Below are positions 5,642-64,000 of a stretch of 64,000 bases of DNA, piece by piece. Numbering within the stretch: position 1 is the stretch's first letter; the number at the start of each line of letters is the position of its first letter. The DNA is from Candidatus Omnitrophota bacterium (GTDB lineage Bacteria; Omnitrophota; Gorgyraeia; JABMRN01; RBG-13-46-9): positions 1,113,021-1,177,020 of the forward strand of contig CP070780.1 in assembly GCA_020346285.1 (NCBI GenBank), written 5' to 3'. A program made the position numbers and the translations under genes. The notes beneath the pieces are model-generated. The model was not told the DNA's origin, did not search any database, and saw only the letters and a program-made list of their open reading frames with translations.

Positions 5642-5670
5642 TTGACAACAGAAACATTGTATGCTATAGT
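5642..5670 (+). promoter_or_regulatory. near-consensus sigma70 promoter with extended -10, heading the long plus-strand gene array
   Basis: TTGACA (5642-5647), a 17-nt spacer, then TGcTATAGT (extended -10, 5662-5670). It lies about 90 nt upstream of the regulator start at 5759, which has a GAGGAG RBS. Confidence 0.5.
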
Positions 5671-5758
5671 TTGTTTAGAACGTTTTAAACGATGTGAATA
5701 TCTACAAACACGTAGAAAATTATGAGTGAAAAAGTGGAAAAAGAACGAGGAGAAAGTT

Positions 5759-6313
5759 ATGAGTGAAGAATTGGAAAAAGCCCAGGATATACTTTTGGGC
5801 AAGGTGAACCAACTATGCGCTAAATTCGGGCTCAATAATGTAATGGCCCAACTTTACATCGTACTATACTTACAGGGTAAGTCCATGTCGCTTGATGCCA
5901 TGGTTGAGCGGCTTAAGATTAGCAAGGGAAGCGTAAGCGTCAATATAAGGGCCCTTGAAAGATACGGTGCTGTAAGAAAAGTATGGGTTAAAGGCTCCAG
6001 GAAAGACTTTTATGAGGTAGAGACAGATATTTCCAGGCTAATAATAGAGAGAGTCAAGTCAATGATACAGGGTCGACTATCTGAAGTGAAGGAAGCGATA
6101 GATGCTTCGCATCGAGCGCTTAACTCCATTAAACCTGTAGATAAAGAAGAAAGGGAGTCTATAAAGGTATTTAACGAAAGGTTAAATCAGCTGAATAAAG
6201 TTCAGAACAAAGCCCGGGGCCTCTTTAATCTATTTAATTCGAGTTTTCTCAACAAAGCGATAGGCCTTAAAACCAAGAGAAATAATAAAGAAGAAATGGT
6301 TGAAATTCATTGA
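5759..6313 (+). CDS. GbsR/MarR-type winged-helix transcriptional regulator
   Basis: LGKVNQLCAKFGLNNVMAQLYIVLYLQGKSMSLDAMVERLKISKGSVSVNIRALERYGAVRKVW.KGSRKDFYE matches the GbsR-family wHTH core. I prefer the ATG at 5759 (GAGGAG RBS) over the upstream GTG at 5726. Confidence 0.65.
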   Translation: MSEELEKAQDILLGKVNQLCAKFGLNNVMAQLYIVLYLQGKSMSLDAMVERLKISKGSVSVNIRALERYGAVRKVWVKGSRKDFYEVETDISRLIIERVKSMIQGRLSEVKEAIDASHRALNSIKPVDKEERESIKVFNERLNQLNKVQNKARGLFNLFNSSFLNKAIGLKTKRNNKEEMVEIH

Positions 6314-7307
6314 AAAGATAGAATTTATGAAATTTACAATAGGTTTTGAGAAAGAAGATACGAAAAAACTCCATAAAATGTGGGATGAAATCATAAAAAC
6401 GCACAAATGGTCAGAAGGAAAGTTTACTCAAATGTTTGAGGAAAGATGGAATGCCTGTAACGATGCGGATTCCGTGGCCTTTTCAAGCTGGGGAGGTGCC
6501 GCATTGGCTGTGTTGGAGTTTTTTAATGTGAAGGGAAAAACAGTGCTTTGTCCCGCCAACACATTTATGGCCACGCCTCTCAGTATCATGAAAGCAGGGG
6601 GTAAGGTTCAATTTGTGGATTGCAATAAGAATGACCTTTGTATGAGCGCGGAAGATTTAAAAGAAAAAATAAATAAATATAATCCATTTGCCGTATTTAT
6701 AGTACATATTGGAGGGCATATAGCATTCCAGATAGAGGAAATAGCAAAATTATGCAAAGAAAAAGGCATTATATTGATTGAAGATTGCGCGCATAGCCAT
6801 GGCGCTTCCTGGAGGGGTCGAAAAGCGGGCACATGGGGGAATGCCGGTATATATTCTTTTTATTCCACAAAAACCATTTCCACAGGCGAAGGCGGCATGC
6901 TGGTTACCAGAAACAAGGATCTTCTAAATTACGCCAAAAAATACAGAAATTACGGAAAATTCGAATACGAAGTAGAGGGCTTAAATTACAGAATGAATGA
7001 GTTTACCGCAGCGGTCGGCTGCGTCCAGGTCAATAGATTGGATGAAATCGTTGATTGGAAAAATGCATACGCCAGAAAATATCTGGACCCCGAATATCCC
7101 AACAGAGTCAATTTTCCTGAAGGAATGAAATCCGGCTATTATAAGTATATCGTATTCGATGAAATTGAGAAATCCACGGGAAAGGTATACGATAAACCCT
7201 GCCATCGAATATTGAAAAAGAGCGATAGTCTGCCGAATACCGATTGGATCGCAAAGAATCATTGGTGTGTTCCCATTTATTACAAGGGTTCTTCTACGCC
7301 AAAGTAG
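6300..7307 (+). CDS. DegT/DnrJ/EryC1/StrS-family PLP-dependent aminotransferase (short N-terminus)
   Basis: 335 aa. IEDCAHSHGASWRGRKAGTWGNAGIYSFYSTKTISTGEGGMLVT...; EGLNYRMNEFTAAVGCVQVNRLDEIV. The N-terminal region is shorter than in typical approximately 380-aa homologues. Confidence 0.8.
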   Translation: MKFIEKIEFMKFTIGFEKEDTKKLHKMWDEIIKTHKWSEGKFTQMFEERWNACNDADSVAFSSWGGAALAVLEFFNVKGKTVLCPANTFMATPLSIMKAGGKVQFVDCNKNDLCMSAEDLKEKINKYNPFAVFIVHIGGHIAFQIEEIAKLCKEKGIILIEDCAHSHGASWRGRKAGTWGNAGIYSFYSTKTISTGEGGMLVTRNKDLLNYAKKYRNYGKFEYEVEGLNYRMNEFTAAVGCVQVNRLDEIVDWKNAYARKYLDPEYPNRVNFPEGMKSGYYKYIVFDEIEKSTGKVYDKPCHRILKKSDSLPNTDWIAKNHWCVPIYYKGSSTPK

Positions 7308-7312
7308 AATTT

Positions 7313-7372
7313 CACAGTAGCTGTGCTTCGAAGAATTCTACGAAGCATAGCATCAATGAAATTTCTACTGTG
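7313..7372 (+). promoter_or_regulatory. nested inverted repeat (potential stem-loop) in the largest intra-array intergenic gap
   Basis: Outer arms are CACAGTAG (7313-7320) and CTACTGTG (7365-7372). The inner imperfect palindrome GCTTCGAAGAATTCTACGAAGC (7325-7346) is centred on GAATTC. It lies in the 87-nt gap between 7307 and 7395. Confidence 0.3.
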
Positions 7373-7394
7373 GCGAAGTAGAAAGGGAGGAAAA

Positions 7395-8345
7395 GTGAAA
7401 GTACTGGTTACAGGCGGAAGCGGTTTTATTGGCTCTCATGTTGTAGAAAAATTGTTGGATAGAGGGATAAGGGTAAGGATTTATGACCTTATGTACCCCG
7501 ATTTTTTAGAAAGTCTCGCGGAGGGCAAAAGAAAAATGGTGGAATATTATCAGGGAAGCCTGCTGGAAGAAGACAGAATCAGACTGGCCCTATCAGGGAT
7601 GGATGCCATTTTTCACCTGGCCGCTGTAGCGGATGTGAATGATGTAGCAAGCGAACCCCGATACGCAGAAAATATAAACATGAAAGGGACTTTTAACATA
7701 CTTGAAGCGGCGCGCTTTACAAAGGTAAAAAGGGTTATTTTTGCAAGCACGGTCTGGGTGTACCAGGATACCCCGCAAGAAGAGAAAATCTTGACGGAAG
7801 ATTCTCCTATTTCGCTTCCTTCTCATTTTTATACCGCGACAAAATTTGCAGGGGAAGCAAATTGCACTTCTTATTCAAAACTTTTTAATGTCCCTTTTAC
7901 TATTTTAAGATTCGGTATCCCCTACGGGCCAAGAGCAAGGGGTACCACCGTCGGCGCGATTTTTGTGGATAAAGCCTTAAAGGGTGAACCACTTACTATT
8001 GCAGGAGACGGGAGCCAATATCGAAAATTTGTTTATGTAGAGGATCTGGCCGAGGGTTGCATATTGGCTTTAAAAAGTATCGCCAGAAATAAAATTTATA
8101 ATTTAGAAGGCGATAAGAAAATCACGATCAAACAAATAGCAGAGACCATAAAAGAGATATTGGGCGAGGCCAAGATTGTCTATATCGCAGACAGGAAAGG
8201 TGATTTTTCCGGAAAAGAGATTTCGAACGAAAAAGCAAAAAAAGAGTTAGGCTGGTATCCGCGAGTTTCTTTTAAAGAGGGTTTAACGGAATATATCGAA
8301 TGGTATAAGAGTGTTCTGAAAGATACCGCAGAAATAGAAATATAA
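7395..8345 (+). CDS. NAD-dependent sugar epimerase/dehydratase (extended SDR)
   Basis: GTG start after an AAGGGAGG RBS. MKVLVTGGSGFIGSHVVEKLLDRGIRVRIYDL is the GxxGxxG Rossmann motif. There is a catalytic YxxxK region (YTATKFAGE). Confidence 0.85.
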   Translation: MKVLVTGGSGFIGSHVVEKLLDRGIRVRIYDLMYPDFLESLAEGKRKMVEYYQGSLLEEDRIRLALSGMDAIFHLAAVADVNDVASEPRYAENINMKGTFNILEAARFTKVKRVIFASTVWVYQDTPQEEKILTEDSPISLPSHFYTATKFAGEANCTSYSKLFNVPFTILRFGIPYGPRARGTTVGAIFVDKALKGEPLTIAGDGSQYRKFVYVEDLAEGCILALKSIARNKIYNLEGDKKITIKQIAETIKEILGEAKIVYIADRKGDFSGKEISNEKAKKELGWYPRVSFKEGLTEYIEWYKSVLKDTAEIEI

Positions 8346-8348
8346 TTA

Positions 8349-9017
8349 ATGAAAAAAATTTTAATTATTGCCCCGCACATGGACGATGAAGTTCTTGGAT
8401 GCGGCGGCACGATATTAAGGTATACCGAAGAGAAGAAGGATGTCTTTATATGTTTTATAGCCAATAGAGCGTACCGTCACCGAATTGATAAAAATAAAAA
8501 CAGAATTCAGAAAAAACATACGCTTCTCGCAAAAAGGATTTTAGGCTATAAAGAAGCGGTATTTTATGAATTAAACGACGAACGGCTCGATATATCGGTT
8601 CAGGACATAATAATTTTGCTTGAATGCTATGTGAACAAGATACAGCCTGGCGCGGTGTACATCCCCTTTATGGGCGATAACAATCAGGACCATAGGGCAG
8701 TTTTTGATGCGGCAAGGGTTGCATTGAGGCCTGCCGCGACACCTTTTGTAAATAGTGTATATATGTATGAAATCCCGTCTTCAACAGAACAGTCACCCCC
8801 CTTAAAAGAAAGCGCATTTCTTCCAAATTACTATGTAGATATAACTAAGTACATTGACAAAAAGACGAAGGCCTTTAGCTCCTATAAAGACGAAAGACGA
8901 AAATATCCCCATCCCCGTTCCGAAAGGGCTATCAGGGCCCTGGCCCAGAAACGGGGTGTTGAAATAGGATTTAAATATGCGGAGGCCTTCATGGTTTTAA
9001 GGGAGAAAGCTCGATGA
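8349..9017 (+). CDS. PIG-L/LmbE-family N-deacetylase
   Basis: ILIIAPHMDDEVLGCGGTILRY is the hallmark (A/S)PHxDDE..G.GG motif of the LmbE/PIG-L family. Confidence 0.8.
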   Translation: MKKILIIAPHMDDEVLGCGGTILRYTEEKKDVFICFIANRAYRHRIDKNKNRIQKKHTLLAKRILGYKEAVFYELNDERLDISVQDIIILLECYVNKIQPGAVYIPFMGDNNQDHRAVFDAARVALRPAATPFVNSVYMYEIPSSTEQSPPLKESAFLPNYYVDITKYIDKKTKAFSSYKDERRKYPHPRSERAIRALAQKRGVEIGFKYAEAFMVLREKAR

Positions 9018-9655
9018 TACTCGGAATAACCCCGGCTCGCGGAGGAAGTAAAGGCATACCGAGGAAAAACATTAAAGAGATCGCCGGTAAGCCTTTAATC
9101 GCATGGACGATAGAAGCGGCGAAGTCGGCAAAATTACTCGATAGATATATTGTCTCTACGGAAGATACGGAGATCGCCCGAGTCTCGCGAAAATACGGGG
9201 CTGAAATATTAAAAAGGCCGGCATGCCTTGCAACTGATAAGGCCTCAACACTTGGCGTGCTCCAACATGCGGTTCGGCAAATTCCTTGTGATATTGTAGT
9301 GCTTCTTCAGGCTACGTCTGCAATAAGAAAATCCACCCTTATCGATGAGTGCATAAGGGAATTTATAGATAATAAATATGACTCCTTATCCACTGGTTTT
9401 ATGTGCAAATATGTGGAATATGCAAAGAACGAGCTTCGAAGGCAGGATATTAAAGGATTCTTTCATGATGATGGCAATGTCTATGTACTAAAAGCTGACC
9501 TTGTCAGAAAGGGAGACCGCTACGGTAGAAAGACCGGGAGGAAAATCGTAAGCCGGTGGGAGAACGTGGAGATAGACGATGAATTCGATTTTTGGCTAAC
9601 CGAGAAAATTCTGAAGGATAGTTATAAAGAAGTAATTAGAGAGATATGCGCGTAA
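9014..9655 (+). CDS. acylneuraminate (nonulosonate) cytidylyltransferase, CMP-NulO synthetase family
   Basis: ILGITPARGGSKGIPRKNIKEIAGKPLIAWTIEAAKSAKLLDRYIVSTEDTEIA matches the N-terminal signature of the CMP-NeuAc/CMP-Pse/CMP-Leg synthetases (CTP_transf_3). Confidence 0.8.
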   Translation: MILGITPARGGSKGIPRKNIKEIAGKPLIAWTIEAAKSAKLLDRYIVSTEDTEIARVSRKYGAEILKRPACLATDKASTLGVLQHAVRQIPCDIVVLLQATSAIRKSTLIDECIREFIDNKYDSLSTGFMCKYVEYAKNELRRQDIKGFFHDDGNVYVLKADLVRKGDRYGRKTGRKIVSRWENVEIDDEFDFWLTEKILKDSYKEVIREICA

Positions 9656-10365
9656 CGATACATCAACCGGAACATATGCCGTGGCCCGGATTTTTCCACA
9701 AGATAAACATGGCGGATACATATGTGGTTCTGGATAATGTTCAATATCGAAGGCGATATTTCCAAAATAGGAATAAGATCAGGACTGCGGATGGCTGGCA
9801 GTGGGTAACAGTTCCTTTAGAAAAAGAAACAAGGGATAGACTGTTAATAAAAGATGCCAGGATCTGGAAGGAAAATTTAAAATGGAAAAGCAAGAATCTC
9901 GAAAGCATTTATCACAACTACCGAAAAGCCGAATACTTTATATATTACTGGAATGGATTCGAGTCTATTTATAATAGAGATTATTTTTACCTGGCAGATT
10001 TCAATCTCGCTCTTTTGAAATTTTTCTTTGAAAAGCTGAAAATCAGGTGCGAAGTCCGGCGGGCTTCGGAAATGGATATTTCCGGCAGGAAGGGGGATTT
10101 GATATTTAATATCTGTAGAGCCTTAAAAGCAAAAAAATATATTTCCGGCATTTCCGGAAAGGAATATTTAAATCTAAAAGATTTTAAGAAAGTGGGGATA
10201 GGGGTAGTTTTTCAGGAATTTCACCACCCGGTTTACAAACAATTACATAAACCTTTTATTGCATGCATGTCTATAATTGACCTTTTATTTAATTACGGAG
10301 ATAGAAGCCTCAATATTATCAGGGGTAAGGGTGGTGTCCCCTTGATGGAAGAGGTAATCCTTTAA
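9646..10365 (+). CDS. WbqC-like family protein (O-antigen cluster associated; function unknown)
   Basis: MRVTIHQPEHMPWPGFFHKINMADTYVVLDNVQYRRRYFQNRNKIRT.DGWQWVTVPL matches the WbqC-like family N-terminal consensus. Confidence 0.75.
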   Translation: MRVTIHQPEHMPWPGFFHKINMADTYVVLDNVQYRRRYFQNRNKIRTADGWQWVTVPLEKETRDRLLIKDARIWKENLKWKSKNLESIYHNYRKAEYFIYYWNGFESIYNRDYFYLADFNLALLKFFFEKLKIRCEVRRASEMDISGRKGDLIFNICRALKAKKYISGISGKEYLNLKDFKKVGIGVVFQEFHHPVYKQLHKPFIACMSIIDLLFNYGDRSLNIIRGKGGVPLMEEVIL

Positions 10366-11241
10366 ATGGGGAAGACTATTATAATAGCGGAAATAGGCGA
10401 GTGTTTTAACGGAGATCTGGAGGTAGCAAAAAAACTAATGTTTGCAGCGAAGAACGCGGGGTGTGATATCGCAAAATTTCAAACACTTGACTATGAGAAT
10501 ATTCAGGAAAATGATCCGGAGTCGGATTGGTTTAAAAAAATTGCGCTTACCGTCGAGAAAATTAATCTCTTGATTAAATATGCCGATGAAACAGGCATAG
10601 ATATCCTCTTTTCGCCAGAAAATTTAAAGACTGCAAAGTGGTTAATAAGGTCAGGTTTGAAAGATGTTAAAATCGCAAGCAACACCATGCAAGATAAGGA
10701 ATTAATCAAGTTTATTAATTGCCATTTTGAACATGTTTTTATGTCAACTGGCATGGCTTTGCTTGAAGAGGTTAAGGATGCTGTGGATAGCTTAAACAAA
10801 GTTAGCGAGCTATATATAATGCATTGTGTTTCCGAGTATCCGACAGGGCCCCTTTTAGAAAAGAGAGGCCTTAAGGCATTATCCCATGATGATGTGAGGC
10901 TTAATATGATGAAAATGCTTATGGAAGAGTTTCCGCGGTACAAGATAGGATATTCGGACCATACGCAAGGGATACTCGCGCCTCTAGCAGCGGTGGCCAT
11001 GGGCGCAAAGGTAATCGAAAAACATATCACCCTTGACAGAAAGACACCTATCGAAAACTTCTTAAAAGGCAAGGAATATCTCGGAACGGACCATATTCTT
11101 TCAATAGAGCCGGATGAACTGAAGGAGATGGTAAGAAGAATACGGGAGATGGAGAGGATGTTCGGCACTAATAAATGGGAACGTTCCGAAGGCGAATATA
11201 TGTTAAGGAATTTTTTGAGAGGACGGTTTGCAAGTAAATAA
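10366..11241 (+). CDS. NeuB-family nonulosonic acid synthase, TIM-barrel catalytic domain only (no SAF/antifreeze-like domain)
   Basis: TIIIAEIGECFNGDLEVAKKLMFAAKNAGCDIAKFQT is the NeuB N-terminal signature. It is only 291 aa and the next gene overlaps its 3' end, so there is no room for the approximately 70-aa C-terminal SAF domain. Confidence 0.75.
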   Translation: MGKTIIIAEIGECFNGDLEVAKKLMFAAKNAGCDIAKFQTLDYENIQENDPESDWFKKIALTVEKINLLIKYADETGIDILFSPENLKTAKWLIRSGLKDVKIASNTMQDKELIKFINCHFEHVFMSTGMALLEEVKDAVDSLNKVSELYIMHCVSEYPTGPLLEKRGLKALSHDDVRLNMMKMLMEEFPRYKIGYSDHTQGILAPLAAVAMGAKVIEKHITLDRKTPIENFLKGKEYLGTDHILSIEPDELKEMVRRIREMERMFGTNKWERSEGEYMLRNFLRGRFASK

Positions 11242-13275: not shown

Positions 13276-13290
13276 TTGATAGGATATAAA

Positions 13291-19276: not shown

Positions 19277-19363
19277 AGGGTAAGGCATGAGTTTGATATA
19301 AGAATGTTTGCGGATACCTCAAAATATATAACAGGCCACAATCTTGTTGTAGATGGTGGTTGA
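19277..19363 (+). pseudogene. relic of the C-terminus of a short-chain dehydrogenase (SDR) gene
   Basis: The intergenic frame reads ...MFADTSKYITGHNLVVDGG* and ends at TGA 19361-19363. This is the canonical SDR C-terminal motif (YITGq.l.VDGG), with no upstream body. Confidence 0.5.
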
Positions 19364-22549: not shown

Positions 22550-22590
22550 AAAGCAGAGATTTTTAATTGAAAAATTGGAGGGAAAAGTAT

Positions 22591-25762: not shown

Positions 25763-25779
25763 TAAAAAAATCGAGGGAC

Positions 25780-29059: not shown

Positions 29060-29072
29060 GAGGGGGTTTAAT

Positions 29073-31799: not shown

Positions 31800-31832
31800 G
31801 TGGTAGTTGCGTTATAAAATTTTGAGGTGGTT

Positions 31833-42443: not shown

Positions 42444-42474
42444 ACAACCGAAATGTTACCAAACAGGAGAAATT

Positions 42475-43238: not shown

Positions 43239-43332
43239 TATAACCCTGGGCGCTTACAGGGACGAACGGAGAGAAAGGAAACGATTGTCACTTTATGACC
43301 GCCGAATATCTAAATTTGAAGGAGAAAAACAG
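43239..43332 (+). pseudogene. relic of a methyltransferase 3' end (homologous to the end of the gene at 29073-29759), internally deleted
   Basis: 43239-43278 matches 29579-29618, and 43288-43332 matches 29711-29755, both at high identity. About 90 nt of intervening sequence is missing and no upstream gene body is present. Confidence 0.6.
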
Positions 43333-43383
43333 ATGAAAAGCCGGGATTTTTTACGAAAAATATTGGCAATGTTGACCATTCCC
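43333..43383 (+). repeat. 51-nt direct repeat (right copy), part of the functional gene start
   Basis: ATGAAAAGCCGGGATTTTTTACGAAAAATATTGGCAATGTTGACCATTCCC is the partner of 42393-42443. A related start (ATGAAAAATCAGGATTTTTTAATAAAAATATTGG) occurs at 29756. Confidence 0.7.
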
Positions 43384-58380: not shown

Positions 58381-59061
58381 ATGACCTGGGATGATATCTG
58401 GGAAAAGGTATTTCAAGAGAATGAATGGGGCAGATATCCGGATGAGGGTCTTATCAGGTTTATCGCGAGAAATTTTTTCCAGAGAACAGATAGAGGAAAT
58501 ATCAATATATTGGAAGTTGGATGCGGTCCGGGACCTAATATCTGGTATCTTTCGAGAGAAGGCTTTGACGCTTATGGAATTGACGGCTCTACCAGTGCTA
58601 TTGAAAAGGCAAAAGGGAGGTTGGGCGAAGAGGGTTTAAAAGCATATCTAAGGATAGGGGATATAATAAGCTTACCATATAAAGATAATTTTTTTGACGC
58701 GGTTATAGATATTGAGTGTCTATACAGTAATTCGAGGGAGGATACAAAAACCATTCTCGGAGAGATAAAACGCGTATTAAAGAAAGACGGTTTATTCTAT
58801 AGCAGAACCCTTACGGATGAGATGTATTTAGGAAAAACGCAGACTAAAGTAGGTCATCTGGAGTACAAAAACATATCTGACGGGCCGATAGCTGGAAAAG
58901 GATTTGCAAGACTTATGGATAAGGTAGAAATATCGAATTTATATGGATCTTTTTTCGATATAATATCAGTTGATAAACTCGAATATACCAAAAATAACGG
59001 TTCAATGAAGATTAACGAGTGGATTATTGTTTGCCAAAATAGTCGAAAAAATAGAAAATGA
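58381..59061 (+). CDS. class I SAM-dependent methyltransferase
   Basis: Motif I is NILEVGCGPGPNIWYLSREGFDAYGIDGS. Motif II is FDAVIDIECL. Motif III is LKKDGLFY. Confidence 0.8.
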   Translation: MTWDDIWEKVFQENEWGRYPDEGLIRFIARNFFQRTDRGNINILEVGCGPGPNIWYLSREGFDAYGIDGSTSAIEKAKGRLGEEGLKAYLRIGDIISLPYKDNFFDAVIDIECLYSNSREDTKTILGEIKRVLKKDGLFYSRTLTDEMYLGKTQTKVGHLEYKNISDGPIAGKGFARLMDKVEISNLYGSFFDIISVDKLEYTKNNGSMKINEWIIVCQNSRKNRK

Positions 59062-60062
59062 ATAGAATTTTTATAATAGCGGAAGCGGGTATTAATCATA
59101 ACGGAAGCATTGTAAATGCAAAGAAAATGATAGATGGGGCGTCCGAGGCCGGCGTAGATGCAGTAAAATTTCAGACCTTTAAGGCGGAGAAGGAGATAAG
59201 TAAATATGCGCCCAAGGTTGAATACCAGAAAAGAACTACTGGCGCTGAAGAATCTCAGCTTGATATGGCTAAGAGATTTGAATTAAAGCAGAGCCAGTTT
59301 AAAGAGCTTTATAATTACTGTAAAGAGAAAAGAATTATTTTTTTATCCTCCCCATCCGATTTAGAGAGTATAGATTTTTTAATAGAACTTGAGCTCGATA
59401 CTTTAAAAATTCCTTCAGGAGAAATAACCAATCTGCCCTTTTTAAGGAAGATAGGAAGTTTAGGAAAGAAAGTTATAATGTCAACTGGGATGGCAGATTT
59501 AGAAGAGATAAAAGATGCTTTAGATATTTTAACCGAGGCAGGAACTCCCAAAAAAAATATAACTATTTTACATTGCAATACAGAGTATCCCACTTCTATG
59601 GAGGACGTAAATCTCTTAGCTATGCTTACAATTAGAGATACTTTTAAAGTAGAAGTTGGATATTCTGACCATACACTTGGAATAGAAGTTCCAATTGCAG
59701 CCGTGGCTTTGGGGGCAGCTATTATAGAAAAGCATTTTACACTCGATAGAAACATGGAAGGACCCGATCATAAAGCATCTTTAGAACTCGATGAACTAAA
59801 AGCTATGGTGAAGGCAATAAGAAATATAGAGAAAACTCTCGGCAATGGGATTAAAAAGCCTTCACCTTCAGAGATTAAAAACATAATACTAGTTCGTAAA
59901 AGCATAGTAGCAACAAGACCTATCAAAGAAGGAGAGATTTTTACAGTGAAAAACATTACAACTAAAAGACCGGCAACAGGAATAAGTCCAATGGAGTGGG
60001 ATAAACTACTTGGGACAACTGCCAAAAGAGATTTTAAGAAAGATGAGGTAGTGGAGTTATGA
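59058..60062 (+). CDS. NeuB-family nonulosonic acid synthase with C-terminal SAF domain (NeuB/LegI/PseI-like)
   Basis: IFIIAEAGINHNGSIVNAKKMIDGASEAGVDAVKFQTF; YSDHTLGIEVPIAAVALGAAIIEKHFTLDR; the C-terminal SAF domain begins KSIVATRPIKEGEIFTVKNITTKRP. Confidence 0.85.
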   Translation: MNRIFIIAEAGINHNGSIVNAKKMIDGASEAGVDAVKFQTFKAEKEISKYAPKVEYQKRTTGAEESQLDMAKRFELKQSQFKELYNYCKEKRIIFLSSPSDLESIDFLIELELDTLKIPSGEITNLPFLRKIGSLGKKVIMSTGMADLEEIKDALDILTEAGTPKKNITILHCNTEYPTSMEDVNLLAMLTIRDTFKVEVGYSDHTLGIEVPIAAVALGAAIIEKHFTLDRNMEGPDHKASLELDELKAMVKAIRNIEKTLGNGIKKPSPSEIKNIILVRKSIVATRPIKEGEIFTVKNITTKRPATGISPMEWDKLLGTTAKRDFKKDEVVEL

Positions 60063-61234
60063 AAAGAAAGGTTTGTATTGTTACAAGCTCAAGAGCAGAA
60101 TATGGTCTTTTAAGACCATTACTTGAAGAAATCGCAAATGATAAAAATTTAACTTTACAACTAATAGTTACCGGGATGCATTTATCACCTGAATTTGGAT
60201 TAACTTATAGAGAAATAGAAAAAGATGGTTTTGCCGTTGATGAAAAAATAGAAATTTTATTAAGTTCGGATACCCCCGCCAGTATTTCAAAATCTATGGG
60301 TCTGGCAATGATAAGTTTTTCCGAAGCTTATGGAAGGCTGAAATCAGATATTATTGTTGTACTCGGTGATAGATTCGAATTCCTTAGTGCGGTTGCAGCA
60401 GCTCTTATAAGCAGGATTCCTGTTGCCCATATTGCTGGTGGCGAAGTTACCGAGGCTGCTTTTGACGATTCTATCCGCCATTCTATAACCAAAATGAGTC
60501 ATTTGCATTTTACTATTATAGAAGATTATAGAAAAAGAGTTATTCAATTAGGAGAAGATCCCCAAAGGGTTTTTAATGTAGGTGCACTGGGAATAGATAA
60601 TATAAAAAAATTAAAGCTCTTTTCTAGAGAAGCTTTGGAAAAGGAGTTAAATTTTAAATTCAATAAACACAATTTGTTAGTTACTTTTCATCCTGTGACA
60701 TTGGAAAATAATACTTCCCCGCAGCAGTTCAAAGATTTACTTAGTGCATTAGAAAACCTGGAGGATACATTTATCATTTTTACTAAAGCAAATGCGGATC
60801 CAGGGGGAAGAATAATTAATAAAATGATCGATACCTATGTATCAAAAAATTGTAGTAAATCTGCGGCCTTTACTTCCTTGGGACATTTAAAATATTTATC
60901 AATACTGCAATTTGTCGATGCTGTAGTCGGGAATTCATCAAGTGGGATTGTAGAAGCTCCTAGCTTTAAGATGGGTACTATCAACATTGGTGGCAGACAG
61001 AAGGGAAGAGTAGAGCCTAAAAGTATAATTGATTGCCAACCCACAAAAGAATCAATTATCAAAGCCTTTGAAAAATTGTATTCTAAGGAATTTCAGAGAA
61101 GTCTCAAGAAGGTTGTCAATCCTTACGGCGATGGTAATGCTGCAAAAAGAATTAAAAATATACTAAAAAACTATGACATCAATAATATCTTAAAAAAGCC
61201 CTTCTTTGATATAGATTTTGGGTATAGGAGATAG
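60059..61234 (+). CDS. hydrolysing UDP/GDP-N-acetylhexosamine 2-epimerase (NeuC/LegG family)
   Basis: KVCIVTSSRAEYGLLRPLLEEI; VVLGDRFEFLSAVAAALISRIPVAHIAGGEVTEAAFDDSIRHSITKMSHLHF is the conserved NeuC core. Confidence 0.85.
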   Translation: MKRKVCIVTSSRAEYGLLRPLLEEIANDKNLTLQLIVTGMHLSPEFGLTYREIEKDGFAVDEKIEILLSSDTPASISKSMGLAMISFSEAYGRLKSDIIVVLGDRFEFLSAVAAALISRIPVAHIAGGEVTEAAFDDSIRHSITKMSHLHFTIIEDYRKRVIQLGEDPQRVFNVGALGIDNIKKLKLFSREALEKELNFKFNKHNLLVTFHPVTLENNTSPQQFKDLLSALENLEDTFIIFTKANADPGGRIINKMIDTYVSKNCSKSAAFTSLGHLKYLSILQFVDAVVGNSSSGIVEAPSFKMGTINIGGRQKGRVEPKSIIDCQPTKESIIKAFEKLYSKEFQRSLKKVVNPYGDGNAAKRIKNILKNYDINNILKKPFFDIDFGYRR

Positions 61235-61255: not shown

Positions 61256-62494
61256 ATGATAGATCGTTTAAAGAGGGTTTGTTTGAAAGAAATTGATATA
61301 GATTATAATGGGCTGTTTAGACACCTCGAAGATTTAAGGAAAGTTTTGCTTGTTACGACTGGCAGGACTGGCTCAGATTTTTTTCAAAGTCTTTTAGACG
61401 GTCATTCGGAAATTTTGCAGTTTACAGGTATGTGGAAGCATCATTGGTGGTGGAAGCAAGCGAAATGCAAAGAAAATTTACCAGACTTAATTAATGAATT
61501 TATCTGGTATACATGTAGTTTTACTTTTTGTAATCATATTGCAAAATTTAAGTCTTGCTATAATAAGCAGGAACGCTGGGGTCAACTGGGAGCTAATAAA
61601 AACGAATCTTTCGAAGTAGATATGGACACCTTTAAGAATCATATGTTGAACATCTTAACCGATAAGGAGTCGAATAGTAAAAATTTCTTTTTAGCAGTTA
61701 ATTTGGCTTACGGTCTTACTACAGGAGTTGACATTAAGAAAACAAAAATAATTTTTTATCACATTCACCATTTCGAGAGATTGAAAGATTTTAAGGAAGA
61801 TTTCCCAGATTTTGACATAATTTGCACAGTAAGAGAACCACGGAATACTTTGGTCTCAGGCATAGAGCATTGGAAAAAATATGATATTAACACATATAAT
61901 TCCAGGTTTTTCTATCAGCTTTTAAAGAGAATTTTTGAAGAGTCTGAACCAATACTGCAAGATACGGGAAACATCAAGACCTTAAAATTGGAAGACTTAC
62001 ATTTATTCTCTAAAGAAACGCTAAGTGAATTTTGTCAGATGTATAATTTGGAGCTTGAGAACTGCATGTTCGAATCTTCTTATCACGGCAAAAAATGGTG
62101 GGGTGATGTTTTATCCGGCAAATATTTAGATGGCTTTAACAAAGATATTAATGAGCGGAAATGGAGAGATAAATTATTTTTTTATGACAATCTTCTAATA
62201 GAATTTATTTTGGAAGATAGATTAAGACATTATGGATATTTTATTGAGAATAAAATATCAAGAATATATTTAATCCTCATTTGGTTTTTAGTCTTTTTGC
62301 CAATGAAATATGAATTAAAGATTTTGGCTTACAATTTCAGAAGTAATAGAACCGCAAACGCCAAACTTTTAGTATTATGCAAGGGCTGGGGGTTTTATAT
62401 ACTGAGAATTCTGCTATATTTTAAATTTATTTTGAAAAAAGTTACTAAAAAAATTTTCTTGGCAGATTTTTTTATTCAAGAAAAATATCGTTAA
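61256..62494 (+). CDS. hypothetical protein with sulfotransferase-like P-loop and hydrophobic C-terminus
   Basis: VLLVTTGRTGSDFF resembles the 5'-PSB P-loop. TVREPRNTLVSGIEHW resembles the 3'-PB motif. The C-terminal approximately 60 aa are hydrophobic (ISRIYLILIWFLVFLPM...ILRILLYF). This is a weak assignment. Confidence 0.35.
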   Translation: MIDRLKRVCLKEIDIDYNGLFRHLEDLRKVLLVTTGRTGSDFFQSLLDGHSEILQFTGMWKHHWWWKQAKCKENLPDLINEFIWYTCSFTFCNHIAKFKSCYNKQERWGQLGANKNESFEVDMDTFKNHMLNILTDKESNSKNFFLAVNLAYGLTTGVDIKKTKIIFYHIHHFERLKDFKEDFPDFDIICTVREPRNTLVSGIEHWKKYDINTYNSRFFYQLLKRIFEESEPILQDTGNIKTLKLEDLHLFSKETLSEFCQMYNLELENCMFESSYHGKKWWGDVLSGKYLDGFNKDINERKWRDKLFFYDNLLIEFILEDRLRHYGYFIENKISRIYLILIWFLVFLPMKYELKILAYNFRSNRTANAKLLVLCKGWGFYILRILLYFKFILKKVTKKIFLADFFIQEKYR

Positions 62495-62530
62495 TAAAGA
62501 TAGGTTGACTAACTTTTAGAGAAGGTAGAT

Positions 62531-63316
62531 ATGAAAGCAATTATTATTGCTGCGGGAATGGGTTCGCGACTGGATCCTTTAACCAATGATGCGCCTAAAT
62601 GTATGTTAGAATTAAACGGCAAGACTTTACTCCAGCATCAGATTGAGGCATTGAGGGGTGCTGGCATAAATAGAATATCTGTAATTAAAGGATATAAAAA
62701 AGAGATGATAGACTATCCTGATTTGGTTTATTATTTCAATGACGATTATCAAGATAATAATATACTGCACTCCTTATTTTATGCAAAAGAAGAAATGAAT
62801 GATGAATTTATAGCCGCTTATTCAGATATCCTTTATAGTAGAGAGATAGTAGAGAGATTGCTTGATAGTAAAGAAGATATCTCAATAGTAGTCGACATAG
62901 ACTGGCGTGGATATTATGAAGGTAGAACAGATCATCCAATTGAAGAAGCAGAAAACGTCATTTTTGATGCTGATAATAATGTGGTTAAGATTGGTAAAAT
63001 TTTACCCGATAAAGATGCTGTTCACGGTGAATTCATTGGTATGATGAAGTGTTCAAAGAAAGGCGCGCTTATTTTTAGGAAATATTTTAACCAGCTAAAA
63101 AAGCGTTATGCCGGAAAGCCTTTTCAGAGGGCTTCTGTATTTAAAAGGGCATATTTGACCGATATTTTTCAGGATATGGCTGATTCCGGTATTAAAATCG
63201 GCTGTGTAATTATTGAAAGGGGCTGGATAGAGATAGATACTATTCAAGATTTTAAGAGGGCCGAAAAGGAATTTTCCAAGAAAGAAGAGGTATTTTTTAA
63301 AAATGAAAAACAATAA
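62531..63316 (+). CDS. LicC-family nucleotidyltransferase (CTP:phosphocholine-type cytidylyltransferase fold)
   Basis: MKAIIIAAGMGSRLDPLTNDAPKCMLELNGKTLLQHQIEALRGAGINRISVIKGYKKEMIDYPDLVYYFNDDYQDNNILHSLFYAKEEM is co-linear with S. pneumoniae LicC (MKAIILAAGLGTRLRPMTENTPKALVQVN.KPLIEYQIEFLKEKGI.DIIIIVGYLKEQFDYL...VFNDKYADYNNFYSLYLVKEEL). Confidence 0.65.
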   Translation: MKAIIIAAGMGSRLDPLTNDAPKCMLELNGKTLLQHQIEALRGAGINRISVIKGYKKEMIDYPDLVYYFNDDYQDNNILHSLFYAKEEMNDEFIAAYSDILYSREIVERLLDSKEDISIVVDIDWRGYYEGRTDHPIEEAENVIFDADNNVVKIGKILPDKDAVHGEFIGMMKCSKKGALIFRKYFNQLKKRYAGKPFQRASVFKRAYLTDIFQDMADSGIKIGCVIIERGWIEIDTIQDFKRAEKEFSKKEEVFFKNEKQ

Positions 63317-64000
63317 GACATTTTGGAATATTTGGACATCATATGCCACATATTACTTTGGAAAAGTAAATTTAAGTATAGTTGTTCCTGCGCTATTGGC
63401 TACATATAAAGACTTGAATTTATATAGTGTTGGGCTGGTGTCGAGCGGATTTTTCTTTGCCTACGCACTGGGCCAGTTCTTGCACGGTCAAATTTCAGAG
63501 CGATACAATCCATTTGTGTATATTTCGTTGGGGCTTATTAGCTCAGCGATTATGAACCTGATCCTTGGGTTTTCTGCTGGTTTTTTCATAATATTATTTA
63601 TAGGAGAGACTCTTGATGGTTTTTTTCAATCAATGGGATGGTCATCTTGCGTAAGAGCAAATGCCTTGATACAAAAGGCTGAAGATAGGGAAAGGTCATC
63701 CACAGTATTGGGAACATCATATCAGGTAGGTAATTCTGTGGCTTGGTTGATATCTGCTTTTGCTGTGGGTCATTGGGGTTGGCAAGCAGGTTTCTGGGTG
63801 GCAAGCATTTTCCTGTTGGCAAGAGGGATATTGTTGTTATTGACAAAACCAAAGATAGAAATAGCGCCCCCTCAAAAAGTGAAAGCGCAAGTAAGAAATA
63901 CTTTATCCTTTCCGATTGTATTGAGCGGTGTATCATTATGCTTACTAAATATGGTCAGGTTCGGAGTTATTACATGGATACCGTTATATTTATTTCAGAA
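63303..64000 (+). CDS. MFS transporter, organophosphate:phosphate antiporter (GlpT/UhpC-like) family, 3'-truncated by the window end
   Basis: The ATG at 63303 overlaps the upstream stop. LGQFLHGQISERYNPFVYISLGL parallels GlpT (G.VSDRSNPRVFL). GFFQSMGWSSCVRA parallels GWFQGMGWPPCGRT. Multiple TM segments follow, and the frame is open to nt 64000. Confidence 0.6.
   Translation, partial: MKNNKTFWNIWTSYATYYFGKVNLSIVVPALLATYKDLNLYSVGLVSSGFFFAYALGQFLHGQISERYNPFVYISLGLISSAIMNLILGFSAGFFIILFIGETLDGFFQSMGWSSCVRANALIQKAEDRERSSTVLGTSYQVGNSVAWLISAFAVGHWGWQAGFWVASIFLLARGILLLLTKPKIEIAPPQKVKAQVRNTLSFPIVLSGVSLCLLNMVRFGVITWIPLYLFQ

Follow-up and report, generated by a model that had tools for sequence, protein, structure and literature searches.

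Flagellin islands of Campylobacter are the classic setting of legionaminic- and pseudaminic-type pathways that include a PtmE-like enzyme. A population-hypervariable 25-kb polysaccharide cassette has been described in one Omnitrophota chromosome (2026 preprint, 10.64898/2026.06.07.730766), and members of Omnitrophota are known to have Tad pili and giant surface proteins (PMC10066038; 10.1101/2023.11.21.568195). Sequence comparison indicates that radical-SAM-rich, same-strand glycan arrays recur on other metagenome contigs and that the present locus type is not a new system. Five loci (L074, L077, L078, L079 and L080) are one-strand arrays, each about 16-22 kb long, with many radical SAM, ThDP, DegT and SDR genes. 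The pair formed by the TIGR04372 transferase and the exporter (g35/g36, Table 1) is adjacent in L045 (40% and 64%) and in L074 and L075 (54% and 62%); in L079 about 5 kb separates a TIGR04372 transferase from an ABC_membrane/ABC_tran exporter, and the 21 kb analysed for L080 contain no such pair. The gene order DegT, CBS-nucleotidyltransferase, g15 homologue is kept in L078, g30 is 65% identical to a gene of L074, and the sub-block g37/g38/g40 is found separately in L043.

The locus studied here was read in a window of 64,000 nucleotides, the whole stretch of DNA analysed, and is reasonably likely to be a composite surface-glycan 'factory', an array for making and exporting a cell-surface sugar polymer that is sulfated and extensively decorated, expressed from one or a few long transcripts. 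HMM annotation assigned 51 of the 53 array genes and five of the six upstream genes to sugar-nucleotide synthesis, tailoring, transfer or export, which bears out the glycan biosynthesis and tailoring programme proposed in the initial annotation; nearly all of its gene calls, whose failure by HMM would have spoken against it, were confirmed by Pfam and NCBIfam.

Table 1. Genes and sequence elements of the locus (window positions).
Feature	Position	Strand	Assignment	Basis
u1	1..481	+	DegT aminotransferase, C-terminal part	PF01041 profile positions 222-358 only
u2	478..1563	+	GT-B glycosyltransferase	Pfam Glycos_transf_1 / Glyco_trans_1_4
u3	1603..3039	-	B12-binding radical SAM enzyme	Pfam, motif check
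u4	3032..3775	-	GT2 glycosyltransferase	Pfam
u5	3772..4977	-	DegT aminotransferase, UCD54938.1	Pfam, exact protein match
u6	5039..5476	-	145-aa protein, divergent from array	without family match
sigma-70-like promoter	5642..5670	+	TTGACA-17-TATAGT, extended -10 TG upstream	11/12 consensus matches
imperfect palindrome, 18 bp	5673..5690		GTTTAGAACGTTTTAAAC, candidate operator	just 3' of -10, at predicted transcription start
g01	5726..6313	+	GbsR/CudC-like winged-helix regulator; likely start ATG 5759, Shine-Dalgarno GAGGAG before it	NF047500 78.6 bits, below cutoff; Pfam
g02	6300..7307	+	short DegT (PseC/LegC-like) aminotransferase	Pfam, NCBIfam, motif check
g03	7323..8345	+	extended SDR, 4,6-dehydratase-like	Pfam, NCBIfam
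g04	8349..9017	+	PIG-L/LmbE-family de-N-acetylase	Pfam, NCBIfam
g05	9014..9655	+	CMP-ulosonate cytidylyltransferase, PseF-like	Pfam; NCBIfam below cutoff
g06	9646..10365	+	WbqC-family protein	Pfam 5e-72
g07	10366..11241	+	divergent NeuB-family synthase without SAF domain	Pfam, NCBIfam
g08	11228..12217	+	PseG-like nucleotide-sugar hydrolase	104 bits vs cutoff 153
g09	12214..13275	+	radical SAM/SPASM enzyme	Pfam, motif check
g10	13276..14973	+	LIC12162-family transferase	TIGR04331, 390.7 bits > cutoff 225
g11	15015..15989	+	radical SAM/SPASM enzyme	Pfam, motif check
g12	16006..17004	+	LegB-type NAD-dependent 4,6-dehydratase, UCD54951.1	471.9 bits vs cutoff 475
g13	16997..18130	+	LegC-family aminotransferase, UCD54952.1	431 bits > cutoff 420
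g14	18195..19271	+	CBS + sugar-1-phosphate nucleotidyltransferase, PtmE-like architecture	Pfam, NCBIfam
g15	19360..21150	+	rare family without model, JSV93_05410, PGAP start 19393	homology matches, predicted structure
g16	21161..22549	+	B12-binding radical SAM enzyme	Pfam, NCBIfam, motif check
g17	22567..23562	+	sulfotransferase (Sulfotransfer_1); likely start ATG 22591	Pfam
g18	23546..25762	+	pyruvate-kinase barrel + PUA_2 + ATP sulfurylase fusion, UCD54957.1	Pfam, NCBIfam
g19	25684..27519	+	acetolactate-synthase-like ThDP enzyme; likely start ATG 25780	Pfam, NCBIfam
g20	27543..28214	+	223-aa protein	without family or PDB match
g21	28211..29059	+	short extended SDR	Pfam
g22	29037..29759	+	class I SAM methyltransferase	Pfam
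repeat copy A	29579..29789	+	gives g23 ATG 29756	87-89% identity with g35 leader and first codons
g23	29669..30769	+	ThDP E1 alpha-like subunit; likely start ATG 29756, overlapping g22 stop as ATGA	Pfam, NCBIfam
g24	30738..31799	+	E1 beta-like subunit	Pfam, NCBIfam
g25	31827..32612	+	classical SDR	Pfam, NCBIfam
g26	32631..33848	+	class I/II (aspartate-aminotransferase-like) aminotransferase, UCD54965.1	Pfam, NCBIfam, exact match
g27	33832..35520	+	acetolactate-synthase-like ThDP enzyme, UCD54966.1; 34% identity with g19	Pfam, NCBIfam
g28	35541..36368	+	split transketolase, N-terminal half	Pfam, NCBIfam
g29	36365..37300	+	split transketolase/DXS-like, C-terminal half, UCD54968.1	Pfam, NCBIfam
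g30	37302..38372	+	radical SAM enzyme, UCD54969.1	Pfam, motif check, exact protein match
g31	38376..40013	+	B12-binding radical SAM enzyme	Pfam, motif check
g32	40029..41243	+	DegT aminotransferase, UCD54971.1	Pfam, NCBIfam, exact protein match
g33	41265..42374	+	radical SAM/SPASM enzyme, UCD54972.1	Pfam, NCBIfam, exact protein match
repeat copy C	42393..42446	+	orphan 18-codon TIGR04372-type gene 5' end	in 100-nt gap
g34	42475..43230	+	weak TylF-like methyltransferase, UCD55893.1	Pfam
repeat copy B	43239..43386	+	genuine leader and 5' end of g35	
g35	43333..44505	+	TIGR04372-family glycosyltransferase, N-terminal membrane anchor	NCBIfam above cutoff
g36	44520..46280	+	fused TMD-NBD ABC exporter, MsbA/Sav1866/ABCB type, UCD54974.1	Pfam, exact match
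g37	46280..47272	+	radical SAM/SPASM enzyme	Pfam; nearest solved structure BtrN
g38	47272..48018	+	CMP-ulosonate cytidylyltransferase, UCD54976.1	Pfam, NCBIfam
g39	48023..48763	+	classical SDR	Pfam, NCBIfam
g40	48787..49665	+	extended SDR	Pfam, NCBIfam
g41	49656..51158	+	B12-binding radical SAM enzyme	Pfam, NCBIfam, motif check
g42	51158..53128	+	TIGR04326 surface-carbohydrate biosynthesis protein	243 bits vs cutoff 250
g43	53146..54054	+	RmlD-like reductase	Pfam, NCBIfam
g44	54029..54955	+	GT2 glycosyltransferase	Pfam, NCBIfam
g45	54952..56397	+	B12-binding radical SAM enzyme	Pfam, motif check; nearest solved structure AprD4
g46	56422..57423	+	Acetyltransf_6 / FemX-like acyl- or aminoacyl-transferase	weak match
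g47	57427..58359	+	divergent DegT-like PLP enzyme	Pfam, NCBIfam, motif check
g48	58381..59061	+	class I SAM methyltransferase	Pfam
g49	59058..60062	+	NeuB/LegI-type nonulosonate synthase with SAF, UCD54987.1	506 bits > cutoff 400
g50	60059..61234	+	NeuC/LegG-type hydrolysing 2-epimerase, UCD54988.1	498 bits > cutoff 236
g51	61256..62494	+	Sulfotransfer_3 protein, hydrophobic C-terminus	Pfam
g52	62531..63316	+	LicC-like NTP transferase, UCD54990.1, opens mobile CDP-alcohol cassette	Pfam, NCBIfam
g53	63303..64000	+	MFS transporter, cut by window end	Pfam

Array layout and transcription signals

The array is unbroken over about 58 kb, or about 4% of the chromosome of this small-genome uncultured Omnitrophota bacterium, and the ORF listing gives 53 consecutive plus-strand ORFs from 5726 to 64000 (roughly 50 in the initial annotation, which had rightly placed every gene from the promoter at 5642 to the edge on the plus strand), the last being open at the window edge. 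Minus-strand ORFs within it are only shadows overlapping plus-strand genes with strong Pfam matches. Such a run has a chance of 0.004 (0.9^52) if neighbours share a strand 90% of the time and of 2e-16 at 50%, which makes chance implausible as its explanation. Proteins of the window match the PGAP series UCD54938-UCD54990 exactly, which belongs to a 1,432,423-bp contig of a Candidatus Omnitrophota MAG, and every ORF looked up (20 plus g15 and g35) corresponds to an exact PGAP protein or to an accession slot fitting an alternative start, that of g35 (390 aa) being identical to the PGAP start.

With longest-ORF starts, 23 of the 52 junctions overlap and the largest gap is 100 nt; Shine-Dalgarno-aware starts give 19 overlaps (eight of ATGA/GTGA type, two or three of TAATG type, the others of 8-26 nt), 20 gaps of 0-25 nt and seven of 63-118 nt (median 11.5 nt), and the PGAP start of g15 (ORF start 19360) leaves 121 nt before that gene. 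The at least 15 ATGA/TGATG overlaps claimed earlier hold as overlaps (19-23), only about 11 being strictly of ATGA/TAATG type, and the gap range of 0-90 nt was slightly too tight, as gaps reach 118-121 nt with other start choices.

The promoter at 5642-5670 lies within the sole long non-coding stretch (249 nt, 29% GC) and ranks first in a scan of positions 1-20000, no site in the window scoring higher. Together with the palindrome and the GbsR/CudC-like g01 it would probably start transcription into the array, and the closely spaced or overlapping genes may then share a single transcript or a few long ones. Internal terminators splitting the array, named in the initial annotation as a counter-finding, were not convincingly present in any intergenic gap; promoter-like and terminator-like counts were close to those of shuffles, apart from an excess of weak terminator-like stems inside coding sequence at 40-60 kb (29 vs 17.3 expected), in consensus scans that are weak tests and cover sigma-70-type promoters and intrinsic terminators. 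A single translationally coupled operon is plausible, and the seven gaps of 63-121 nt, the mosaic GC content and the repeat scars leave room for internal promoters.

Sugar-nucleotide synthesis and tailoring enzymes

Pfam and NCBIfam searches revealed two NeuB, one NeuC, one PseG-like protein and two CMP-transferases. The two nonulosonate modules of the initial annotation are both NeuB-based but not equivalent, one being near the legionaminic/neuraminic models and the other, g02-g08, reaching none of the curated Pse, Leg or Neu cutoffs (NCBIfam). By family assignment, g14, g12 and g13 and then g50, g49 and the CMP-transferase g38 make up a near-canonical route of legionaminic/neuraminic type, with g49/g50 located 40 kb downstream of g12-g14; the window lacks a LegH-type N-acetyltransferase. 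On the same level, g02-g08, including the PIG-L deacetylase and the WbqC protein, form another, divergent ulosonate route based on NeuB, and DegT and SDR enzymes account for further amino- and deoxy-sugars. The six DegT enzymes claimed were all recovered by Pfam (four in the array, two upstream), and the supposed six or more extended SDRs proved to be five extended and two classical ones (Pfam/NCBIfam).

Tailoring would fall to ten radical SAM enzymes, four ThDP systems, SAM methyltransferases and the FemX-like acyltransferase. The radical SAM count agrees with the earlier one (nine in the array, one upstream); five are B12-binding, four are SPASM proteins, and all ten keep CX3CX2C. By analogy, the five cobalamin-dependent members are putatively C-methylases. 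The array leans on unusually many oxygen-independent radical enzymes. The ThDP carboligases called earlier comprise two acetolactate-synthase-like enzymes, an E1 alpha/beta pair and a split transketolase (Pfam/NCBIfam), which by analogy may form C-C branches or side chains. Two of the three methyltransferases reported before are clear, the third (g34) being weak. Sulfation was likewise recovered, with two sulfotransferases and an ATP sulfurylase, the latter above its curated cutoff (NCBIfam), and the pyruvate-kinase/ATP-sulfurylase fusion g18 would supply the sulfotransferases. Sulfotransferases normally need PAPS; no APS kinase domain was found in the window.

The nearest solved relatives of g37 are BtrN (a sugar dehydrogenase) and BlsE, and that of g45 is AprD4 (a diol dehydratase). 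The closeness of these two radical SAM enzymes to the aminoglycoside enzymes BtrN and AprD4, the abundance of DegT enzymes and of radical SAM enzymes that depend on B12 (by analogy, putative methylases), the drug-pump fold of exporter g36 and a regulator as first gene would suit a biosynthetic cluster whose product is a secreted glycosidic secondary metabolite, aminoglycoside-like or other, with the ABCB-type pump serving self-resistance or export and g01 being pathway-specific. Such a product is nevertheless very improbable: Pfam revealed neither a 2-deoxy-scyllo-inosose synthase nor any other enzyme that forms a scaffold among the window ORFs, the two NeuB, the NeuC and the two CMP-transferases are hallmarks of cell-surface glycoconjugates, as are three transferase families named for surface carbohydrate/O-antigen loci, and the same design recurs as a variable locus in many unrelated anaerobes.

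Transferases, export and the carrier

Three large ORFs left as unknown in the initial annotation are putative transferases of the TIGR04331, TIGR04326 and TIGR04372 families, and g15, whose structural model is poor (pLDDT 60.9), is tentatively a GT-B enzyme; the glycosyltransferases listed earlier are thus present and have more company than had been seen. To our knowledge, TIGR04331, TIGR04326 and TIGR04372 have no biochemically characterised member. In the surface-glycan reading, these three families (TIGR04372 membrane-anchored), the GT2 enzyme and the tentative GT-B would build the glycan on the cytoplasmic face, and g36, the ABC exporter reported before and recovered by Pfam, would carry it across the inner membrane as an MsbA/PglK-type half-transporter (nearest solved relatives MsbA and Sav1866). 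Genetic pairing of g36 with a TIGR04372 transferase is seen in unrelated contigs.

In window ORFs of at least 100 aa, Pfam at E<=1e-3 revealed no Bac_transf or WecA-type initiating transferase, Wzx, Wzy/ligase, STT3, hexapeptide acetyltransferase, flagellin or Maf, in keeping with the absences listed in the initial annotation. The window encodes no carrier or acceptor, be it a protein or a lipid-linked polymer resembling an O-antigen or capsule, and because the initiating enzyme, ligase, polymerase, oligosaccharyltransferase and target protein are absent, the term 'surface glycan' rests on family associations. A lipid-carrier initiating enzyme, polymerase and ligase are absent both from the window and from up to 10 kb around the related arrays, which, with the Campylobacter precedent and the giant surface proteins and Tad pili of Omnitrophota, would fit a protein-glycosylation island putting sugars directly on a surface protein (flagellin, pilin, S-layer or giant surface protein). 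This is unlikely, given that genes for flagellin, Maf/DUF115, an FlmG-type TPR transferase, PglL/PglB and a target protein are missing from the window, that the membrane-anchored transferase and MsbA/PglK-type exporter argue for a lipid-linked intermediate, and that the TIGR04331 and TIGR04326 NCBIfam models bear O-antigen-style names.

Mosaic origin of the array

Paralogues in the array are at most 36% identical to one another, GC content varies stepwise between 0.34 and 0.44, and direct-repeat scars flank a 12.6-kb block; at the level of sequence, these features demonstrate piecemeal assembly by recombination and horizontal transfer rather than by duplication. The g35 leader, with its strong Shine-Dalgarno sequence, is repeated at two other junctions, flanking g23-g33 and g34.

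These repeats and stepwise GC shifts also favour, along with the seven longer gaps, the 40 kb between the legionaminic genes and the occurrence of sub-blocks elsewhere (g37/g38/g40 in L043, g35/g36 in L045 and L074, g52/g53 in many phyla), a reading with somewhat less than an even chance of being correct. It takes the array as concatenated same-strand operons, independently transcribed and acquired and perhaps serving more than one glycan (e.g. an O-antigen and a protein glycan), split for example into g01-g11, g12-g16, g17-g22, g23-g33, g34, g35-g36, g37-g51 and g52 onward; the positive GC skew over the whole array is what leading-strand packing predicts. However, 39-43 of the 52 junctions overlap or have gaps of at most 25 nt, even across presumed module borders, intergenic intrinsic terminators were not found and promoter-like matches were no commoner than in shuffles, and one product requires both halves of the legionaminic route.

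As for the extent of the surface-glycan array, the earlier suggestion that the locus exceeds the window holds on the 5' side, where glycan genes occupy 1-5476 and u1 is cut by the window start, showing that the locus goes on upstream. It is borne out on that side only, because at the 3' end the last two genes, g52 and g53, belong to another cassette, a widely transferred one for CDP-alcohol seen in many phyla, with g53 homologues in both bacterial and archaeal phyla at 64-84% identity.

Reading of the locus and layout of the array

The stretch carries what is probably a large nonulosonate-containing surface-polysaccharide locus, a known kind of locus that is distinguished here by its size relative to the genome, by how densely radical SAM and ThDP enzymes are packed in it, and by transferases that are uncharacterised. 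The interpretation offered by the initial annotation was essentially right. The best-supported reading, which we regard as fairly probable, is a composite surface-glycan factory. Such a factory would make at least two CMP-activated ulosonates together with further amino- or deoxy-sugars, and would modify these by methylation, acylation, sulfation, and radical and ThDP reactions that need no oxygen. The glycan would be assembled by unusual transferases, presumably in lipid-linked form, and carried out by an MsbA/PglK-type exporter, with expression running from a regulated promoter in a single transcript or a small number of long transcripts.

The ORF listing gives 53 consecutive plus-strand ORFs (g01 to g53), the last of which is open at the window edge, preceded by six upstream genes (u1 to u6) and a gap of low GC content (see the table). 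Minus-strand ORFs within the array read as shadows, since all of them overlap plus-strand genes with strong domain matches. A same-strand run of this length is far beyond chance (0.9^52 = 0.004 at 90% strand persistence). The promoter-like site in the gap ranks first in a scan of positions 1-20000 and its score is not surpassed anywhere in the window, in agreement with the earlier description of a single co-directional array led by a promoter at 5642. Directly after its -10 box lies an 18-bp palindrome, GTTTAGAACGTTTTAAAC, at which the GbsR/CudC-like regulator g01 may bind as its operator. The start of g01 is most likely at ATG 5759, with a GAGGAG Shine-Dalgarno sequence before it.

With longest-ORF starts, 23 of the 52 junctions overlap, and with Shine-Dalgarno-aware starts 19 do (ATGA/GTGA in eight cases, TAATG in two to three, the remainder overlapping by 8-26 nt); the latter starts give a median spacing of 11.5 nt and seven gaps of 63-118 nt, one gap reaching 121 nt if the PGAP start for the gene at 19360 (g15) is used. 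The claim of at least 15 overlapping junctions therefore stands, whereas the accompanying range of 0-90 nt for the gaps was slightly too narrow. The common strand, the short or overlapping junctions, and the strong promoter-like site before the first gene would fit a single operon. The main rival to a single unit is the leading-strand concatenation of several operons, which would be compatible with the functional reading and to which we give a chance only somewhat below even. Internal terminators splitting the array were not found: the consensus scan of the window placed no plus-strand terminator-like site in any intergenic gap, and the larger gaps, when folded, lacked a GC-rich hairpin followed by a U-tract. 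Promoter-like sites were about as frequent as in shuffled sequence, in consensus scans from which internal promoters may escape, and terminator-like sites also stayed near the shuffle level outside the 40-60 kb region, where weak stems were in excess (29 against 17.3 expected). No Rfam family was found at gathering thresholds (no riboswitch, such as those for cobalamin or SAM, in the leader or gaps), and a tRNA scan found no tRNA. Upstream, a perfect hairpin in the gap between the minus-strand genes u6 and u5 may act as a terminator or RNA-processing site inside the divergent four-gene unit.

Each ORF that was looked up corresponds to an exact PGAP protein or to a slot in the accession series that fits another start choice (UCD54938.1-UCD54990.1; locus tag JSV93_05410 for g15). 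The numbering had suggested a pseudogene within g27-g37; this was rejected, as the apparent gap arises because g34 carries the out-of-series accession UCD55893.1. The public name of g34, 'crotonobetainyl-CoA--carnitine CoA-transferase', is probably wrong, since Pfam gives only weak TylF/Methyltransf_24 matches.

Table. Features of the window with their coordinates, and gene families assigned by Pfam and NCBIfam
Feature	Genes	Number	Coordinates	Remarks
Upstream genes, plus strand		2	1-1563	First cut by window start
Upstream genes, minus strand		4	1603-5476	
Hairpin			5016-5048	Perfect, 14 bp, GC-rich; about -32 kcal/mol including flanks; in 61-nt gap
Gap before array			5477-5725	249 nt, 29% GC
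Promoter-like site			5642-5670	Sigma-70 type, TTGACA-17-TATAGT, extended -10 TG, 11/12 positions
Palindrome			5673-5690	
Same-strand array	g01-g53	53	5726-64000	Plus strand
Rare family	g15	1	19360-21150	585-596 aa
ATP sulfurylase fusion	g18	1	23546-25762	
Repeat copy			29579-29789	87-89% identical
Repeat copy			42393-42446	91% identical
Methyltransferase, weak	g34	1	42475-43230	TylF-like
Repeat, g35 leader and first ~18 codons	g35		43239-43386	
LicC-like and MFS pair	g52, g53	2	62531-64000	
DegT aminotransferases	u1, u5, g02, g13, g32, g47	6		4 in array
Class I/II aminotransferase	g26	1		
Radical SAM, B12-binding	u3, g16, g31, g41, g45	5		
Radical SAM, SPASM	g09, g11, g33, g37	4		
Radical SAM, other	g30	1		
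Extended SDR	g03, g12, g21, g40, g43	5		
Classical SDR	g25, g39	2		
ThDP systems	g19 + g27, g23/g24, g28/g29	4		ALS-like; E1 alpha/beta; split transketolase
Methyltransferases, clear	g22, g48	2		
Sulfotransferases	g17, g51	2		
GT2	g44	1		In array
Fused ABC exporter	g36	1		

Predicted nonulosonate routes and tailoring enzymes

Annotation with Pfam and NCBIfam models upheld the inventory first drawn up from the bare sequence, with small corrections. The six DegT enzymes, ten radical SAM enzymes, the sulfation genes, and the ABC exporter were all matched, while the extended SDRs number five rather than at least six, joined by two classical ones, and the third of the three proposed methyltransferases gave only a weak match. 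Both of the proposed nonulosonate modules are NeuB-based, one being of legionaminic/neuraminic type and the other divergent and below all cutoffs. The absences listed at that stage were also borne out at Pfam E ≤ 1e-3: the window holds no initiating phosphoglycosyltransferase, Wzx, Wzy/ligase, STT3, flagellin, Maf, or hexapeptide acetyltransferase, nor any match to the Wzx/Wzy-type locus markers Polysacc_synt/MATE, O-antigen ligase/Wzy, Bac_transf, and Glycos_transf_4.

The predicted legionaminic/neuraminic-type route would be split, with its front half in g12-g14, its back half in g49/g50 some 40 kb away, and g38 or g05 as CMP-synthetase. In the front half, g12 scores 471.9 bits with the LegB model TIGR04180, just under the cutoff of 475, and g13 exceeds the LegC cutoff (TIGR04181, 431.3 against 420 bits) and is named a LegC family aminotransferase by PGAP; g14 has a PtmE-like CBS + NTP_transferase architecture and passes no equivalog model. 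The back half is formed by a hydrolysing NeuC (g50, TIGR03568, 498.5 bits against 235.9) and a NeuB (g49, TIGR03569, 506.3 bits against 399.65), by models that do not separate Neu from Leg specificity. For the LegF/CMP-synthetase role, g38 and g05 have a CTP_transf_3 domain and pass no equivalog model. A LegH-type N-acetyltransferase is missing, no window ORF having a Hexapep domain; in the related locus L078, a Hexapep gene comes after the g15 homologue.

The second module, g02-g08, consists of a short DegT enzyme, a dehydratase-like SDR, a PIG-L deacetylase, a PseF-like protein, WbqC, a NeuB without SAF domain, and a PseG-like protein, and is, by its domain content, a putative divergent NeuB-based ulosonate route. 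It falls under every Pse, Leg, and Neu cutoff, with Pse scores of 48 bits for PseB (g03, cutoff 408), 151 for PseC (g02, 423), 121 for PseF (g05, 206), 104 for PseG (g08, 154), and 148 for PseI (g07, 340), and a PseH-type GNAT is absent from it. A canonical pseudaminic pathway was rejected on account of these scores.

The combination of pseudaminic- and legionaminic-type routes is shared with the flagellin O-glycosylation island (Pse/Leg/Ptm) of Campylobacter jejuni, and the likeness extends to a PtmE-like CBS-nucleotidyltransferase adjoining LegB and LegC homologues and to NeuB/NeuC/CMP-transferase paralogues. Unlike that island, the window is devoid of Maf, flagellins, and a LegH/PseH acetyltransferase, its second module is not canonical Pse, and it carries an ABC exporter and a membrane-anchored transferase. 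That the acceptor is a protein, the array being a protein-glycosylation island, appears unlikely.

All ten radical SAM proteins retain an intact CX3CX2C motif. The nearest solved relatives are BtrN and BlsE for g37 and AprD4 for g45, and g33 matches the NCBIfam DesII model, so that the closest solved or curated relatives of these three are sugar-tailoring enzymes of aminoglycoside pathways, a group comprising BtrN, AprD4, GenK-type B12 methylases, BlsE, and DesII. Identity to these is low, with E values of 1e-9 to 1e-16, and every NCBIfam score lies far below its equivalog cutoff; the radical SAM enzymes of the window also stand in a surface-glycan context rather than in an antibiotic cluster. 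A cluster for a secreted glycoside is a very improbable reading of the array. Among the other tailoring candidates, g46 is weakly FemX-like.

For PAPS-type sulfation, the window supplies the sulfurylase g18 and two sulfotransferases, one of which (g51) has relatives of at most 67% identity among the matches listed in a metagenome scan; an APS kinase domain is found nowhere in the window. The g18 protein joins a pyruvate-kinase barrel, PUA_2, and an ATP sulfurylase domain (422 bits against a cutoff of 387), an architecture with more than 120 full-length relatives at 55-72% identity, among whose names are Pacearchaeota, Nanoarchaeota, Paceibacterota, and Anaerolineae. Many of these homologues have a fused APS kinase. 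Widespread as it is, the architecture is to our knowledge uncharacterised; speculatively, the pyruvate-kinase domain may regenerate ATP for sulfate activation.

Putative transferases, exporter, and the 3′ end

Three large ORFs without a Pfam match belong to NCBIfam putative transferase families: g10 to TIGR04331 (LIC12162 family, 390.7 bits against a cutoff of 225), g35 to TIGR04372 (227.8 against 45, with a start at 43333 that agrees with PGAP), and g42 to TIGR04326 (243 against 250). Elsewhere, the same 1.43-Mb chromosome encodes a second TIGR04372 glycosyltransferase (protein P0254) that shares 54% identity with g35, so the genome may hold another such locus or a continuation of this one. 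The g15 family is rare and has no Pfam or NCBIfam model, with four word-index homologues and, in a set of 1.84 billion proteins, 58 cluster representatives. Its AF2 model matches only GT-B folds (TM 0.2-0.35), and because confidence in the model is low (pLDDT 60.9), assignment of g15 as a putative GT-B protein is tentative; profile comparison with g42 and g10 was not significant. Both g15 homologues with retrieved context (L077 and L078) lie inside same-strand, radical-SAM-rich glycan arrays, and L078 preserves the order DegT, CBS-nucleotidyltransferase, g15 homologue seen in the window. For g20 and g06, no relative with a solved structure was found.

The sole ABC protein of the window, g36, is a half-transporter of the MsbA/Sav1866/ABCB type with fused ABC_membrane and ABC_tran domains and six predicted transmembrane segments; comparison with MsbA and Sav1866 gives 228-243 bits, and the protein has the features of a type IV ABC exporter. 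A separate Wzm permease/Wzt ATPase pair (ABC-2) is absent from the window. As in PglK/MsbA/Wzk-type translocation, g36 is a fused half-transporter genetically coupled to a glycosyltransferase; unlike in those systems, no lipid-carrier genes lie near it, and the likeness was scored against MsbA and Sav1866.

At the 3′ end, g52 is LicC-like (NTP_transf_3 in Pfam; a phosphocholine cytidylyltransferase family protein in PGAP) and is paired with the MFS fragment g53. Among the matches listed, the pair recurs at 59-84% amino-acid identity in other loci (L003-L017 and L023), in MAGs of Aminicenantes, Eubacteriales, Deltaproteobacteria, Cloacimonadota, KSB1, Saccharibacteria, Methanocellales, and Thermoplasmata, and g53 relatives range from 24 to 84% among those listed in the genome scan. 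This suggests a cassette moving between domains. Its conserved neighbours elsewhere are a methyltransferase, a TagD-like cytidylyltransferase, CDP-alcohol phosphatidyltransferases, and a phosphate porin, so that g52/g53 appear to open a separate, mobile CDP-alcohol/phospho-headgroup module. Of a lic-type phosphocholine decoration module (LicA kinase, LicB permease, LicC cytidylyltransferase, LicD transferase), the window offers only the LicC-like g52, next to the MFS protein g53, and neither LicA nor LicD was seen there or among the neighbours of the pair elsewhere.

Mosaic origin and related loci

The array is a mosaic. Its GC content steps from 0.34 (56-64 kb) to 0.44 (32-36 kb), and no paralogue pair exceeds 36% identity, which means that it did not grow by recent duplication; recent tandem duplication was rejected as its origin on these grounds. 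The leader and first codons of g35 are repeated at two further places in the window, one copy giving the E1-alpha gene (g23) its start codon, ATG 29756, and the other being an orphan fragment in a 100-nt gap. The three copies (87-91% identical) bracket the g23-g33 block and g34, and look like recombination scars of cassette insertion.

The LPS O-antigen (rfb) locus of Leptospira interrogans is, like the array g01-g53, a very long and almost entirely same-strand array of sugar-nucleotide genes, and the NCBIfam models matched by g10 and g42 are named after the Leptospira genes LIC12162 and LIC13510. Multi-paralogue NulO clusters including the legionaminic pathway are described for Leptospira, and the L. 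interrogans rfb and nonulosonic-acid cluster shares with the window multiple aminotransferase, NulO-synthase, and CMP-synthetase paralogues as well as that pathway (PMC3438082). The window differs in its ten radical SAM enzymes, four ThDP systems, sulfation module, and TIGR04372 transferase with ABCB exporter, in being without Wzx/Wzy or an initiating transferase, and in its host, a 1.43-Mb Omnitrophota genome rather than a spirochaete. Closer in phylogeny, a population-hypervariable 25-kb polysaccharide cassette has been reported on an Omnitrophota chromosome, in a preprint that also places genes for LPS/capsule glycosyltransferases and for polysaccharide biosynthesis in the next-largest cargo categories of hypervariable and mobile-cargo loci (10.64898/2026.06.07.730766). 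The array shares phylum and functional class with this example of the hypervariable polysaccharide cassettes of streamlined bacteria, and its mosaic composition and recombination scars are shared with such cassettes in kind, whereas it is more than twice as long as the 25-kb case and has unusual enzymology. In the literature, no description was found of Omnitrophota glycan or nonulosonate loci or of clusters combining nonulosonic and radical SAM genes.

The window makes up about 4.5% of the 1,432,423-bp contig, and the commitment of such a share of the chromosome to one glycan locus suggests a central role for the surface coat in the way these nanobacteria live, their dependence on hosts or prey being suspected. 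No concept of glycan biosynthesis is overturned by the locus alone. One annotated, apparently intact array unites uncharted sugar chemistry, in the form of its radical SAM and ThDP systems, with three uncharacterised putative transferase families and the pyruvate-kinase/ATP-sulfurylase fusion, and with this set it offers, in a compact form, candidates that can be tested for new oxygen-independent carbohydrate tailoring and as the missing nonulosonate transferases.

The design recurs on other contigs. The related array L074, which is 19.7 kb long and has all its genes on a single strand, combines radical SAM/SPASM, B12-radical SAM, split transketolase, methyltransferase, SDR, and sulfotransferase genes with further SDR, B12-radical SAM, and DegT genes, and it encodes a g30-like radical SAM protein (65% identity), a PK-ATPS-APSK fusion (72%), a TIGR04372 transferase (54%), and an ABC exporter (62%). 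Four more same-strand stretches of about 16-22 kb, found via g15 (L077 and L078) or g35 (L079 and L080), are likewise rich in radical SAM, ThDP, DegT, and SDR genes. No initiating transferase, polymerase, ligase, or flagellin occurs in the retrieved stretches of these five loci.

Such loci could conceivably, although we think it rather doubtful, represent a hitherto undescribed type of anaerobic, 'radical' glycan factory, with the window as a full-length example. These would be same-strand super-arrays horizontally shared by uncultured anaerobes, ultra-small ones among them (Omnitrophota, Aminicenantes, Chloroflexota, CPR, DPANN), in which radical SAM dehydrogenases/dehydratases, cobalamin-dependent C-methylases, and ThDP carboligases replace oxygen-dependent tailoring. 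They would yield nonulosonate glycans, hyper-modified, C-branched, and sulfated, put together by the uncharacterised TIGR04372/04331/04326 transferases, flipped by an ABCB-type exporter, and serving as a hypervariable surface coat for host/prey attachment or phage escape.

On its 142-kb contig (ENA ERZ25766727), L080 ends at 16531-21058 in IS/transposase genes, two of them on the opposite strand, an end that fits such loci being mobile or recombination-prone.
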